A DNA stretch of 50,378 nucleotides from a virus. Lineage: Duplodnaviria > Heunggongvirae > Uroviricota > Caudoviricetes. Below the pieces are notes generated by a model. That model made no database searches and was not told where the DNA came from. It saw only the letters and a program-made list of their open reading frames with translations. This document shows, one piece after another, positions 43,742-49,708 of this stretch. The position numbers and the translations under genes are program-made. Position 1 is the first letter of the stretch. Each line of letters begins with the position of its first letter. The stretch is taken from positions 1 through 50,378 of the IMG/VR virus record IMGVR_UViG_2562617057_000009; one strand, given 5' to 3'.

Positions 43742-44058
43742 GGGAATTTTCCCCGCACACGCCGGAGAACTGGATCACCACGCACAACGGCATTGAGTAC
43801 ACGGCACCAGCACCAGGGGAGAACATCCGCGACAACGCTCCAAACTTTCATAAATGGCTTGATCACGCTGCCGGAAAAGATCCGGGCAAGATGATGCGTA
43901 TATGCGCCGCGCTATACATGATTATGGCGAACCGGTACGACTGGCAGATGTTTATTGAGGCCACCGGAGACGGCGGGAGCGGCAAGAGCACTTTCACGCA
44001 CATAGCCAGCCTTCTGGCAGGGAAACAGAACACAGTAAGGCAGTATGACTTTCCGTGA
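43742..44058 (+). pseudogene. internal fragment of a P4-type primase/helicase gene (Walker A GDGGSGKS)
   Basis: Frame reads ...YDWQMFIEATGDGGSGKSTFTHIASLLAGKQN...; no start codon; begins at the IS186 end. Confidence 0.6.
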
Positions 44059-44059
44059 G

Positions 44060-45565
44060 ACAGATGCTGGCCAACGTGGGATATTTAACGCGGGTTAACA
44101 TCGTTGTCAGAGCCGCATGGGTGAGCTGTTGCTACACCCCGGTATTTCCACCACGGAGGCCAGCATGAACAACAATAACACATTGTACGTCGGGTTAGAT
44201 GTTCACAAAGAATCGATTACTGTCGCTTATGCTATCAATTCAGAACCTGTTGAACTGATGGGTAAAATTGGCACATCACCTACTGATATTCAGAATCTTT
44301 GTAAACGTCTCAGGTCAAAGTCATCGCAGGTCAGTATCGTTTATGAAGCGGGGCCCTGTGGTTATGGACTTTATCGTCGGCTGGTGAAATCCGGTTTTGA
44401 CTGCATGGTCTGCGCCCCCTCACTTATCCCGAAAAAACCGGGGGAGCGGGTTAAAACCGATCGCCGTGATGCCATCAGACTTGTGCGTTCACTGCGTGCA
44501 GGAGATCTTTCTGCTGTCTACGTACCCGGCATTGAAGATGAGGCATTCCGGGATTTGGCCCGGGCATGGGCATCTGCCCGCGATGATTTACGGCATGCAA
44601 GGCAACGTCTGAAATCGTTTCTTCTGGTTCATGGGGTCCATTATGTCGGGCGAGCAGATTGGGGCCCTGCACACCGACGCTGGCTCAGCAAATACTCATT
44701 CGAAAGTCCCTGGCGACAATTAGCTTTTGACGAACACCGTCGTACAATAGAAGACCGGCAGGCACAATGTGAACGGCTGGAATCCGCCCTGAAGGAGGCC
44801 GTTACCGAATGGAGGCTGTATCCGGTAGTAGAGGCGCTGCAAGCCATGCGAGGGATTCAGTTTATTACTGCGGTTGGATTAATTTCTGAACTGGGTGATC
44901 TGACCCGTTTTGAACATCCACGACAACTGATGTCATGGTTTGGTATCACGCCATCAGAATATTCATCGGGTGGAAGCAGACATCAGGGCAGCATTACCAA
45001 AGCCGGAAACAGCTATGCCAGAAAGCTATTGGTCGAGGCAGCGTGGAGTTACCGTCATCCGGCACGCATCAGTCCGGCAATACAAAAAAGGCAGGAAAAT
45101 TTACCCCGCCCCGTCATTGACAGAGCATGGGATGCTCAACTCAGGCTTTGTAAGAGGTATCGAAAACTTCAGGCCAAAGGAAAGAATGTCAATATTACAA
45201 TTGTTGCTGTTGCACGTGAGCTGGCGGGTTTTATCTGGGATATGGGCCGAATAGCAATGTCTGTCGCACAACAACCACAATGTCACAAATAAAAAATGAG
45301 AATAACCAGTTCCCTGAAGGCGACGTAGCCCGGTACAAGAGTAACCCACGTTAGCGCTTGGCGACGGCGGAACAAAGCTGATTCGCGACGTAAGAAAGTG
45401 GCAGGCTCATATGACGGACCTCTGTAATGCGGTATCCAACCCGCGAATATCAGCGTGATTCACCGTCGGATTTACTGCTACGTCGCCCTCAGGGAATTAA
45501 ACCTAAAAAGAAAATCGTCAAAATTAGAGATTCCGGTTTGACACGGAAAGTCATATCAGCGCTGA
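44060..45565 (+). mobile_element. IS110-family insertion sequence (boundaries approximate) inserted in the primase gene
   Basis: Transposase with DEDD-type N-terminus (LYVGLDVHKESITVA); primase coding sequence resumes at 45567. Confidence 0.55.
44165..45292 (+). CDS. IS110-family transposase
   Basis: Start MNNNNTLYVGLDVHK; ~375 aa. Confidence 0.7.
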   Translation: MNNNNTLYVGLDVHKESITVAYAINSEPVELMGKIGTSPTDIQNLCKRLRSKSSQVSIVYEAGPCGYGLYRRLVKSGFDCMVCAPSLIPKKPGERVKTDRRDAIRLVRSLRAGDLSAVYVPGIEDEAFRDLARAWASARDDLRHARQRLKSFLLVHGVHYVGRADWGPAHRRWLSKYSFESPWRQLAFDEHRRTIEDRQAQCERLESALKEAVTEWRLYPVVEALQAMRGIQFITAVGLISELGDLTRFEHPRQLMSWFGITPSEYSSGGSRHQGSITKAGNSYARKLLVEAAWSYRHPARISPAIQKRQENLPRPVIDRAWDAQLRLCKRYRKLQAKGKNVNITIVAVARELAGFIWDMGRIAMSVAQQPQCHK

Positions 45566-45566
45566 G

Positions 45567-46292
45567 ATGACATCGCTTGATGATGCTGGTGGGCGTGCAC
45601 AGGTTGTCGGGAGTCGTCTTATCGTCCTGGCAGACCAGCCGAAATATACAGGCGAAGGAACGGGCATCAAGAAAATCACGGGCGGCGACCCCGTGGAAAT
45701 TAACCCGAAATATGAAAAGCGTTTTACGGCGGTAATCAGGGCGGTGGTGCTGGCAACCAATAACAATCCGATGATATTCACCGAACGGGCCGGAGGCGTG
45801 GCACGTCGTCGCGTGATTTTCCGTTTCGACAATATCGTCAACGAGGCCGAAAAAGACAGGGAACTACCGGAAAAGATTGCGGCTGAAATCCCCGTCATTA
45901 TCCGCCGATTACTGGCGAACTTTGCAGACCCTGAAAAGGCGCGGGCTTTACTACTGGAACAGCGTGACGGTGATGAAGCACTGGCGATAAAGCAGCAAAC
46001 GGATCCGGTTATTGAGTTTTGCCAGTTCCTGAATTTTCTGGAGGAAGCACGTGGCCTGATGATGGGTGGCGGTGGCGATTCCGTGAAGTACACGACCAGA
46101 AACAGCCTTTACCGCGTCTATCTGGCGTTTATGGCATACGCAGGCAGAACCAAACCACTAAACGTAAATGACTTTGGCAAGGCCATGAAGCCAGCCGCAA
46201 AAGTTTACGGACATGAATATATTACGCGAAAAATTAATGGAGTGACGCAGACTAACGCAATAACAACCGACGATTGCGACGCGTTTTTATAA
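45567..46292 (+). pseudogene. 3' part of the P4-type primase/helicase gene
   Basis: Continues the primase C-terminal region (LIVLADQPKYTGEGTGIKKITGGDPVEINPK...). Confidence 0.65.
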
Positions 46293-47272: not shown

Positions 47273-47297
47273 GAAGCCGGAGCAATCCGGCTTTTTT
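47273..47297 (+). terminator. intrinsic terminator
   Basis: Hairpin gccggagcaatccggc plus TTTTTTAT. Confidence 0.7.
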
Positions 47298-47325
47298 ATG
47301 GGTCCTCCCGGTGTAGTGACCTGCC

Positions 47326-47343
47326 ACGGGGCGGGAGCGGCGC
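47326..47343. other. cos-like site C (cosN-like core acggggcgggagcggcgc)
   Basis: About 40 bp on the left side match the cos region at 22800-22848; right side unrelated. Confidence 0.45.
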
Positions 47344-47606
47344 GGAAAAAGGCTAGTTTTTGAAATTTCATTCGTCATCACCACTACTGTAATGGATTGA
47401 TATTACAGTGGTTTTATTTTTATGGTGTCGATTTTGATTGTTTTTTTGTTCGACACCTTTGCAGGCAGATAAAAAAGCCCGATAAGTACAGGAGGCAAAC
47501 TTAGCGGGCTTTTTCATATATGAGGTTAACAGCATGGTGACTACTGTTTCCGGAAATCATTTCATAATTTGCAACATGGATCGATATTATTGCGAAATAT
47601 GAAATC

Positions 47607-47642
47607 ATGATTATAATCATAACTGGATGAACATCCAGTTAT
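47607..47642. promoter_or_regulatory. two perfect palindromes (ATGATTATAATCAT; ATAACTGG-N8-CCAGTTAT) upstream of the capsid gene block
   Basis: Adjacent to the first gene of the capsid block. Confidence 0.4.
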
Positions 47643-47673
47643 GATTTTTAACGTCAAAGAGGAATTTCTGACT

Positions 47674-47880
47674 ATGGCAGAAGAGAAAAAAGGTGGGGTT
47701 ACAGTCTACATAAGCCCCGACATCGTGGAGGCACTCAAGGAACGCCACCAGCAGAACGTAAAAGCGAGCATTGCGGCAGGACTTGATCCGCTGGCAATGG
47801 TTGAGCCGTCAACAGGCTGGCAGGTGCGCGCCTATTTACGTGCGGCGTTGGGCATGAATCAGGTTCACGGGGGTGAATAA
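47674..47880 (+). CDS. hypothetical small protein preceding the capsid gene
   Basis: Start MAEEKK after AAGAGGA; stop overlaps the E-like start. Confidence 0.45.
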   Translation: MAEEKKGGVTVYISPDIVEALKERHQQNVKASIAAGLDPLAMVEPSTGWQVRAYLRAALGMNQVHGGE

Positions 47881-48935
47881 TGGCAGGTAAAGCAACGGCT
47901 CTTAACACTAACCAGCTTTTCGCGTACCTGAATCGGCAGGATGTTCCGGATTTTAGATTCAGTCCGCTGTTTACGTCGCTGTTTTTTCCGAACGTGGCGA
48001 CCTTCAACACGCAGGACATCATGCTGGATACCCTGGATATTGAAGAAGTCACCATGTCGGCGTTTTGTTCGCCTATGGTGGGTAGCCAGGTTCAGCGCGA
48101 TAAAGGGTACGAAACAAGCACTATCCGCCCCGGCTACATGAAGCCCAAGCACGAAATCGATCCATCAAAAACCATTATGCGCATGGCTGGAGAAGATCCG
48201 GCACAGCTTAACGACCCCACCTGGCGACGTATGCGCCTCATTACTGGCAACATGCGCCGCCAGATAAACGCCATTAAAGCGCGTGTGGAATGGCTGGCAG
48301 TGAATGCGGTCACGACCGGAAAAAACATCATTGAAGGCGAAGGCATAGAACGCTATGAAATCGACTGGAATATGCCGGCAAACTGCATTGTCCATCAGGG
48401 GCCAGGAAAAAAATGGTCTGAGCAGAATAAAGAGACGCATGATCCGACAGATGACATCGAGCTATACGCCGAACAGGCCAGCTGCCCCGCCAACGTCATG
48501 ATTATGGGCGCTGAGGTATGGCGAACGTTACGCAGCTTTAAAAAATTCCGCGAGCTGTACGATCTTTCCCGTGGTTCAGAATCCGCCGCAGAGCTGGCGT
48601 GTAAAAACCTGGGCGAAGTGGTGAGCTTTAAAGGCTATCTGGGCGATATTGCCCTTATCGTCTATTCCGGCAAATACGCCGACAGCGACGGCACCGAAAA
48701 ATATTTCCTTGAGCCTGATTTGCTTGTCCTGGGCAACACCAACAATAAAGGGCTGGTGGCCTATGGTGCGATTATGGATCAGGACGCAGTAAGAACGGGC
48801 GCAACGCAAAACATGTTTTACCCGAAAAACTGGATTGAGGACGGCGATCCGGCGATTGAGTACGTGCAGACGCACAGCGCACCGCAGCCGGTTCCGGCAG
48901 ATATTCGCAAATTTGTTACCGTCAAAATTGGTTAA
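47880..48935 (+). CDS. E: major capsid protein, lambda gpE family
   Basis: Collinear with recalled lambda E (YMKPKHEIDP..., TWRRMRLITGNMR..., HDPTDDIELYA..., YPKNWIEDGDPA...). Confidence 0.8.
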   Translation: MAGKATALNTNQLFAYLNRQDVPDFRFSPLFTSLFFPNVATFNTQDIMLDTLDIEEVTMSAFCSPMVGSQVQRDKGYETSTIRPGYMKPKHEIDPSKTIMRMAGEDPAQLNDPTWRRMRLITGNMRRQINAIKARVEWLAVNAVTTGKNIIEGEGIERYEIDWNMPANCIVHQGPGKKWSEQNKETHDPTDDIELYAEQASCPANVMIMGAEVWRTLRSFKKFRELYDLSRGSESAAELACKNLGEVVSFKGYLGDIALIVYSGKYADSDGTEKYFLEPDLLVLGNTNNKGLVAYGAIMDQDAVRTGATQNMFYPKNWIEDGDPAIEYVQTHSAPQPVPADIRKFVTVKIG

Positions 48936-48946
48936 CGGGAGATTCT

Positions 48947-49282
48947 ATGGGCACTCCATATGTTGAGTTATTTGCAGGCAGTCAGCAGGTCGCCACGACG
49001 CTGGTACATTTTGCCGCTGATGCTGGCGTTATTCAGGAATTTACCCCGCTGATGCTGGCGGACAATGGCGAGTTTAAGGCGTGGGATGGTCAGGAATCTG
49101 GCAAGGCTGTTTATCTGACGGCGTACCCCGTGGACACGTCAAAGCAGAAATCAGCACAGTGTTACAAGACGGGGATATTCAATATTGCCGCCGTTAACTG
49201 GCCTGAGAGCGTCGACACCGATGCGAAAAAATGCGCCGCCTTTACGGGTTCTGGCGTATCCGTTCAGCCGCTGGCCCGATAA
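48947..49282 (+). CDS. head decoration protein, lambda gpD-like
   Basis: C-terminal region (TPLMLADNGEFKAWDG...) resembles recalled lambda D. Confidence 0.55.
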   Translation: MGTPYVELFAGSQQVATTLVHFAADAGVIQEFTPLMLADNGEFKAWDGQESGKAVYLTAYPVDTSKQKSAQCYKTGIFNIAAVNWPESVDTDAKKCAAFTGSGVSVQPLAR

Positions 49283-49294
49283 GCAGGGGGAACG

Positions 49295-49708
49295 ATGGCA
49301 ACGAATGAAAGCATCATGGCGCTACCGCTGGCGAGTAAATTTAAAGCCGAAGCGCGGGCAATGGCTGACAGAGGGTTATCAACCTACGAGGCCATATATC
49401 AACTTAACAAACTGGAAGAGCAGGACAAGCCGCGCGCTGATGCGATTATGGCGCTTGATGAATCTGGCGACTATCAGCCGCTGTTACGTGCAATGGCAAA
49501 CGTGCCTTGTATCGATGTTGGTACGGCTAAAAGCATTCTTAGCATGACCATAGAGCAGGAACGCCAGAAGGTTGCACCAGAGCTTACCGCAGCCTTTGAA
49601 AACTTTATGGACATACACAGCCCGAAAGCCGTATCAGCTGGCATGGCATACGATGGCAGAAACCCGGGCGATGACGGCGACATCGATCGCATACTGAAAA
49701 CCATCTGA
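49295..49708 (+). CDS. hypothetical protein
   Basis: 137-aa ORF followed by a terminator. Confidence 0.45.
   Translation: MATNESIMALPLASKFKAEARAMADRGLSTYEAIYQLNKLEEQDKPRADAIMALDESGDYQPLLRAMANVPCIDVGTAKSILSMTIEQERQKVAPELTAAFENFMDIHSPKAVSAGMAYDGRNPGDDGDIDRILKTI

Follow-up and report, generated by a model that had tools for sequence, protein, structure and literature searches.

The two symmetric DNA elements that lie ahead of the capsid gene block very probably belong to the sigma-70 promoter and leader of that block's operon (positions 47590-47663), in which arrangement the core of the long inverted repeat, hereafter IR2, would constitute an operator for the LexA repressor of the host, and the 14-bp palindrome, hereafter palindrome 1, would be the −10 element. 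A preliminary description had proposed both as operators for a dimeric regulator, of which proposal one half is supported: the core of IR2 has the sequence of a good and conserved LexA box, whereas palindrome 1 has no independent support in such a role. The transcription start, the binding of LexA, and the SOS inducibility of this promoter are all predictions made from the DNA sequence.

The island, the capsid-block operon and its predicted promoter

The window—by which we mean the whole stretch of 50,378 nucleotides analysed—is a segment of E. coli chromosome, the last ~8 kb of which are occupied by a decayed phage-inducible chromosomal island (PICI), a phage-parasitic element, of the EcCICFT073 type, which is inserted beside the tRNA-Pro gene next to yejM. 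For the annotation of the island we used the RefSeq CDSs of the record FDAARGOS_943, which is 100% identical, and in which the island carries, in this order, an integrase gene (split by IS21), an AlpA-like HTH gene, icd-like genes, DUF4222, a primase gene, an 85-aa ORF, ssb, the 68-aa ORF, the capsid E homologue, the decoration D homologue, and a fourth gene. In the window the primase gene (43891-46292) is split by an IS110-family transposase gene (44117-45292), because of which interruption we consider this island decayed and probably immobile; in FDAARGOS_943, whose island is otherwise identical, the primase is intact and the integrase is the gene split by IS21. Intact islands of the same layout are found at other attachment sites in other strains, and in EcCICFT073, which island has been studied experimentally, the same block is c1498-c1501, next to phoQ. 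The palindromes of the window sit in the promoter of a c1498-c1501-like operon. In CFT073 those four genes change their expression together, rising upon a temperature upshift (PMC12890032); and since, in addition, two terminator-like hairpins cut off the upstream genes, the block acts as a transcription unit of its own. The literature yielded no phenotype for c1499 or c1500.

The features of the region are the following:

47274-47299: terminator-like hairpin with a T-run (hairpin 47274-47293)
47300-47456: lambda-type cos site, 92-96% identical to mEp460-like phage termini
47469-47517: second terminator-like hairpin, bidirectional
47560-47575, plus strand: conserved upstream block TTTCATAATTTGCAAC, near-invariant in 52 distinct E. 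coli PICI promoters
47590-47595, plus strand: predicted −35 hexamer TTGCGA, from a sigma-70 scan
47590-47604, plus strand: inverted repeat TTGC-N6-TGCAA over the −35 and the spacer, with TGAAA as the variant in the window
47607-47620, no strand assigned: palindrome 1, ATGATTATAATCAT, a −10 element with symmetric flanks
47612-47617, plus strand: predicted −10 hexamer TATAAT, invariant in all 33 aligned promoters that bear a LexA box
47615-47646, no strand assigned: IR2, in which the predicted LexA box is lengthened at either end by six symmetric bases (AATCAT / ATGATT)
47621-47640, no strand assigned: predicted LexA operator (SOS box) AACTGGATGAACATCCAGTT, CTG-N10-CAG, at about −3 to +17 of the putative start
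47622-47625, plus strand: putative transcription start, ~47624, from promoter geometry (7 nt after the −10)
47645-47649, plus strand: T-run after IR2; L177 lacks it, and E. coli, Salmonella, and L176 have T5-T7
47657-47663, plus strand: ribosome-binding site AAGAGGA, 10 nt before ATG 47674, kept in all relatives
47674-47880, plus strand: opening gene of the operon, a c1498 homologue of 68 aa (annotated as a CDS in the RefSeq record FDAARGOS_943; phrog_3255, unknown function)
47880-48935, plus strand: capsid protein E homologue, c1499 homologue (PF03864, E = 9e-50)
48947-49282, plus strand: head decoration protein D homologue, c1500 homologue (PF02924, E = 2.9e-17)
49295-49708, plus strand: fourth gene of the block, c1501 homologue (phrog_1999; RefSeq annotation head-tail connector), weakly matching the C-terminal end of a head maturation protease family

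The intergenic region ahead of the block opens at the ssb stop (47259). Over 1,300 E. coli genomes carry a stretch related to the cos site of the window, and the homology to phage termini ceases at ~47460; the corresponding region of EcCICFT073 has both hairpins, with no cos at that spot. The cosB-equivalent part of the cos region contains an inverted repeat (ACTACTGTAAT-N8-ATTACAGTGGT, 47383-47412) that was flagged as terminator-like and that could instead be a recognition element for terminase or Rpp. A 14-nt direct repeat, one copy of which (ATGGATTGATATTA, 47392-47405) lies in the loop of the cos-proximal hairpin while the other (ATGGATCGATATTA, 47576-47589) abuts the −35, was dropped as a functional element, not being kept in the 76%-identical island L002; and a replication origin, which the literature places immediately after pri-rep, was likewise discarded, since two genes and two hairpins intervene here.

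From the conserved block TTTCATAATTTGCAAC to the ribosome-binding site the DNA is far better kept among the 52 distinct E. coli promoters than is the DNA to the left of that block, which falls into unrelated types. The block itself, still recognisable in the loci L176 and L073, might serve as an UP-like element or bind a regulator. Downstream from it, the sigma-70 scan detected TTGCGA-16-TATAAT, with 10 matches out of 12. Most relatives carry TTGCAC as the −35, the TTGC being invariant in all of them; and in the two relatives that lack the LexA box, L073 and the Edwardsiella locus L174, the −10 is TAAAAT. The putative start at ~47624 would fall within the left arm of IR2.

The 14-bp perfect palindrome of the preliminary description was confirmed at 47607-47620, as was the location of both elements just before the first gene of the block, with the palindromes ending 28 nt ahead of ATG 47674 of the 68-aa ORF. 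The adjacent inverted repeat, described as ATAACTGG-N8-CCAGTTAT, is present as well, as a portion of a longer perfect inverted repeat, AATCATAACTGGATG / AA / CATCCAGTTATGATT, whose 15-nt arms (47615-47629 and 47632-47646) lie 2 nt apart, and which shares six bases (AATCAT) with palindrome 1. When the window was compared with first-order Markov resamplings, we counted three 14-bp perfect palindromes where 3.9 ± 1.5 were expected, so that palindrome 1 is not beyond chance. Inverted repeats with arms of at least 10 nt numbered two in the window, IR2 and a terminator-like GC hairpin at 35613, with 0.87 expected per resampling; and IR2 is far beyond chance.

Palindrome 1 is formed about the invariant TATAAT, the sequence ATTATAAT being self-complementary, and two of its seven pairs are inherent in that hexamer. 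Its outermost pair is A.T in 13 sequences, C.G in 10, and unpaired in 9, which pair is the sole one that varies within E. coli; the association between those two columns, 13 bp apart in closely related sequences, may be a matter of shared ancestry. E. coli and L177 preserve the core TGATTATAATCA, L176 has a palindrome shortened to 10 bp, and in the Salmonella relative the palindrome is lost (TGGTTTATAATCA) with the −10 and the LexA box retained. Palindrome 1 is thus essentially a −10 element with partly symmetric flanks and lacks independent support as an operator: its occurrence is at chance level, its outer pair is free to vary, and it is gone in Salmonella, so that its conservation in homologous elements fails at the larger distance.

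The pentamer ATGAT/ATCAT occurs five times within 47550-47650, with 0.4 occurrences expected, and is neither over-represented nor conserved in the Salmonella relative; such units give rise to palindrome 1, to another palindrome, AATCATGATT (47603-47612), and to the outer arms of IR2.

Fit of the IR2 core to LexA and its conservation

To score LexA sites we used a count matrix built on the 18 LexA boxes of E. coli that Table 4 of PMC3009722 gives as validated. By that matrix AACTGGATGAACATCCAGTT, with a heterology index (HI) of 6.98, or 7.34 when the matrix was symmetrised, was the best of the 50,359 positions of the window. The validated boxes themselves had leave-one-out HIs between 0.6 and 17 (ruvA, 8.5; cho, 7.9; recA, 6.6), in which range AACTGGATGAACATCCAGTT occupies the middle. 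It has, moreover, the form of an SOS box—a 20-bp dyad with CTG and CAG 10 bp apart and an A/T-rich centre—the consensus being TACTG(TA)5CAGTA (PMC6590174). In 41 kb of further CFT073 chromosome and prophage DNA no site with an HI of 11 or lower was found. The second- and third-best sites of the window, AACTGTAGTTATGTACAGGT and ATCTGTATGGATAACCAGTG (32184-32203 and 32213-32232, 29 bp apart; HI ~8.5-11.4, according to which matrix is used), are located directly upstream of a DinI-family gene (31922-32170, minus strand; 82 aa; PF06183, E = 1.2e-19), which location provides an internal validation of the matrix; that gene is probably an SOS-regulated dinI paralogue.

With respect to the promoter, AACTGGATGAACATCCAGTT begins 3 nt after the predicted, invariant TATAAT, which hexamer has TTGCGA 16 bp upstream; and boxes that overlap the start site are typical of genes under tight LexA control (PMC8072944). 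The E. coli LexA operators of ruvAB (CGCTGGATATCTATCCAGCA) and cho (ACTGGATAGATAACCAGC) are, like AACTGGATGAACATCCAGTT, 20-bp CTG-N10-CAG dyads whose spacer is AT-rich, and CTGGAT...ATCCAG is common to AACTGGATGAACATCCAGTT and the ruvA box. The predicted box has an HI in the same range and would, as in the tightly repressed SOS genes, overlap both core promoter and start site; unlike the E. coli boxes, it is carried by a mobile phage satellite instead of accompanying a DNA-repair gene, and is embedded in a 32-bp perfect palindrome that LexA does not need. In some islands a second, weaker LexA-like site was observed at the integrase stop codon, upstream of a small ORF that precedes alpA (L003:3102, HI 9.6; L001:6217, HI 10.8; L004:2144, HI 8.2, with CAC for CAG).

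To follow the site among relatives we assembled 80 IMG/VR loci by capsid homology and ~80 further ones by the pattern of the two conserved flanking blocks, which latter search is unbiased towards intact palindromes because it relies on the flanks. The comparison further included EcCICFT073, five loci from E. coli genomes, and contigs on which the 68-aa protein has divergent homologues (54-65% protein identity), these coming from Salmonella, Edwardsiella, and two metagenomic islands. Two scans of a species-representative genome collection, one by the capsid protein and the other by the flanking-block pattern, found nothing.

A LexA box occurs at the same offset from the −10, with an HI of 6.1-10.2, in 30 of the 31 E. 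coli promoter variants, the exception having a 1-nt spacer insertion that destroys the box; and EcCICFT073 carries exactly the box sequence of the window together with identical palindromes, the two differing over 47580-47670 only in the −35 region. Farther away, the boxes of Salmonella (GACTGGATAAATATCCAGAT, HI 8.8), L176 (GACTGGATGCACATACAGTT, HI 8.9), and L177 (CACTGTATATAAATTCAGTT, HI 7.7) all begin 3 nt after TATAAT and are each the top-scoring site of the locus, the products of the respective first genes being only 57-65% identical to that of the window. The L177 box differs from that of the window at 6 of the 20 positions, being closer to the canonical consensus and having lost the central CTGGAT/ATCCAG stem; likewise, the E. 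coli variants ATCCAG>ATACAG and GGATG>GGATA break the hairpin pairing while lowering the HI, and so improve the match to LexA. The ten invariant positions of the box (CTG, AT, AT, CAG) all have the base of the LexA consensus, and the variability per position correlates negatively with the information content of the LexA matrix (Spearman rho = −0.64, p = 0.002). Since the LexA score is maintained while the stability of the hairpin varies, the conserved property is the fit to LexA instead of a fixed sequence or a stable hairpin. The conservation in homologous elements on which the preliminary description had made its proposal depend therefore holds for the IR2 core, in both position and LexA-matrix quality.

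The LexA box is absent from L073 and the Edwardsiella locus L174, where the promoter architecture is otherwise the same, which absence indicates that LexA control is not obligatory for the operon. Positions 1-16213 of L174, from an Edwardsiella tarda chromosome, are a PICI having a block of a 70-aa ORF, capsid E, and decoration D directly upstream of a prophage portal gene, an S49 protease gene, another D/E gene pair, and genes for the tail; and this PICI may be a helper-embedded satellite. In L073 the list of ORFs contained no long ones downstream of the capsid block resembling the portal and protease of L174. We dropped the notion that the loss of the box was tied to helper-embedded islands, for the two loci gave no clean correlation.

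Alternative explanations for the symmetry

The dyad of IR2 reaches 6 bp past the 20-bp LexA box on both sides, its outer AATC...GATT is kept in all relatives, and this extension is left unexplained by LexA binding. IR2 and the T-run might, in replacement of or in addition to a LexA operator, form an RNA-level element, either an intrinsic terminator or attenuator for transcripts that enter from upstream or, by the inner part of IR2, a stabilising hairpin at the 5' end, which explanation we regard as improbable. If both arms were transcribed, the hairpin would be strong (−17.7 kcal/mol, z = −6.9), a run of T5-T7 follows it in most relatives, and the outer arms show compensatory changes and G.U-type intermediates, with 4 of the 15 pairs changed on both sides and a covariation score reached in 1 of 500 shuffles, albeit among closely related sequences. 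The operon's own mRNA, however, would start at ~47624, inside the left arm, and could then form a hairpin of only 5 bp, the leader fold not being significant (z = −0.9); the hairpin plus T5 would arise only in transcripts beginning upstream of 47615. The promoter that such transcripts would require, TTCATA-18-TATTAT (47561-47590), was rejected, since its −10 is not conserved among the relatives (TATCAT, TTCTAT, TTTTAT, TATTGT). Furthermore, the stability of the hairpin fluctuates from −17.7 through −13.4, −11.1, −9.9, and −8.4 to −5.5 kcal/mol (z = −1.1, not significant, in L176) while the LexA score is kept; the pair just outside the box is unpaired in 13 of the 33 sequences; the variants that break pairing match LexA better; and the T-run is missing in L177. 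The terminator scan did not flag IR2, no Rfam family matched it, and two terminator-like hairpins are already available upstream of the promoter.

A second explanation, to which we likewise assign little likelihood, retains the dimeric regulator but has it encoded by the PICI or a phage—for example, the 68-aa protein as a ribbon-helix-helix (RHH) autoregulator that would bind the ATGAT/ATCAT units together with palindrome 1 and the outer IR2 arms. The excess of those pentamers, the symmetry beyond the LexA box, and the conserved TTGC-N6-TGCAA over the −35, which suggests an additional factor at the promoter, would all agree with that idea, as would the strand-helix-helix topology of the AlphaFold model of the 68-aa product (pLDDT 77) and its RHH matches, which were sub-threshold only (Pfam RHH_1, E = 0.15, and BrnA antitoxin, E = 0.12, both at residues 4-24). 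Against it, that product had no significant family match, no PDB sequence match, and no significant fold match (best E = 2.7) that would speak for DNA binding; palindrome 1, at chance level, and the ATGAT units are not kept in Salmonella, although the homologue of the 68-aa protein is; and the box drifts along the LexA matrix, neither holding one sequence nor co-varying with the proteins of the island. A private repressor, moreover, would not be expected to mimic CTG-N10-CAG at an HI within the validated range in four lineages. Far less probable still, and rejected here, is a satellite packaging signal, namely the 'R elements' of the PICI-specific cosB, to which the Rpp-TerS complex binds. A lambda-type cos that matches mEp460-like termini does lie ~150-300 bp upstream, and Rpp is a winged-helix dimer; the sequence of the R elements is undefined in the literature, PICI cosB being known only functionally (PMC6739421). 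Yet the identical palindromes are found upstream of c1498 in EcCICFT073, where the intergenic region contains no cos; in the window the homology to phage termini ends before the palindromes, with the hairpin at 47469-47517 in between; and in all relatives the palindromes, spaced constantly from the ribosome-binding site, overlap a conserved −10 and the putative start.

The inverted repeat over the −35 deserves separate description. The dyad TTGC-N6-TGCAA is kept in every relative (L002-L005, L172, L174, L176, L177, L073), including the two that have no LexA box, and takes the form TTGCACAAAATGCAA in most E. coli PICIs, TTGCGATAAGTGCAA in Salmonella, TTGCTTAAAATGCAA in L176, TTGCGGTAAATGCAA in L177, TTGCATGTTATGCAA in L174, and TTGCAAAAAATGCAA in L073. 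The TGAAA that replaces TGCAA in the window is shared with a small sub-lineage, and L174 carries the dyad twice. When 17 loci were scanned, the dyad was found at this promoter in nearly every matching locus, and five loci had one off-promoter copy; near alpA the search for second copies gave only an occasional intragenic match. We consider the dyad a candidate site for a second regulator. A sigma-54 reading of TTGCAC-N4-TGCAA was discarded upon inspection, the spacing being off by 2 bp. The notion of AlpA as a Q-like antiterminator was dropped, the AlpA of P. aeruginosa, a promoter-loaded antiterminator, being a 21Q-like protein of ~150 residues, unrelated to the 68-aa AlpA of PICIs.

Regulatory meaning of a proposed LexA operator on the capsid block

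If the IR2 core is a LexA operator, a LexA dimer lying at about −3 to +17 in undamaged cells would occlude or block RNA polymerase and so keep the operon silent; under SOS conditions the RecA-stimulated self-cleavage of LexA would free the near-consensus promoter, upon which the capsid and decoration homologues of the satellite would be made. The lambdoid helper prophages are induced by the same SOS signal, the RecA-stimulated cleavage of LexA. For the induction of PICIs, published work reports a dependence on AlpA and on the helper phage, together with an SOS-independent expression of alpA (PMC6092414), for which reason LexA could provide, at the most, a second layer of control. In the searchable literature we found no report of LexA control of Gram-negative PICIs and no experimental results on LexA binding or SOS derepression at this site, LexA and EcCICFT073 being co-mentioned there only through citation of the SaPI study referred to below; the papers concerned present the control of Gram-negative PICIs as governed by AlpA and the helper and as independent of SOS.

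The symmetry not accounted for by LexA, the pentamers, and the −35 dyad may leave room for a second regulator or for a minor role at the RNA level. One tentative and rather unlikely elaboration is a two-input switch, in which LexA would work at the start site while a second factor, from the satellite or the helper, would bind the TTGC-N6-TGCAA dyad over the −35; that factor might in addition recognise the TGATT/AATCA units, from which palindrome 1 and the additional IR2 arms arise. Were this so, the capsid-interference genes would fire only when the SOS signal and a helper or PICI signal coincide. Alternatively, an extra factor could modulate the occupancy of the operator by LexA, as does gp7 of phage GIL01.

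The closest counterpart of the arrangement proposed here is operon I of the SaPIs, the packaging and interference module of the staphylococcal PICIs, whose control by LexA was demonstrated experimentally (Ubeda et al., 2007, through PMC5052747 and PMC11442139). In both systems a box for the LexA of the host—in ours a predicted one—is placed on the promoter of a capsid or packaging module downstream of the replication genes, and a distinct, helper-dependent switch governs the remainder of the island, Stl in the SaPIs and AlpA in the Gram-negative PICIs. The boxes are nevertheless of different types, the Gram-positive AGAACTTAAGTTCG in the SaPI (PMC11442139) versus the gamma-proteobacterial CTG-N10-CAG here, and the genes are unrelated, the SaPI ones being cpmAB, terS, and pti and ours the E-like capsid and D-like decoration homologues; the parallel would consequently be a convergent one, in which the LexA control is experimentally established on the SaPI side and predicted on that of the capsid block. 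The prophage-borne SOS boxes of the dinI family, exemplified in the window by 32184-32232, are similar in that an accessory gene of a mobile element is placed directly under the LexA of the host, but those boxes are two in tandem and have no link to virion genes, from which arrangement the capsid-block promoter differs.

A LexA operator on the capsid and decoration operon, if real, would amount to a second, host-wired layer of control over the satellite and to a convergent parallel of the LexA-controlled packaging operon of the staphylococcal islands. DNA-damaging antibiotics would then switch on the capsid-block genes even in cells free of a helper. The prediction furthermore offers a handle on c1498-c1501, whose genes have lately been observed to react jointly under host-like conditions; and, since EcCICFT073 is an established system that carries the identical LexA site, the prediction could be cheaply tested there.
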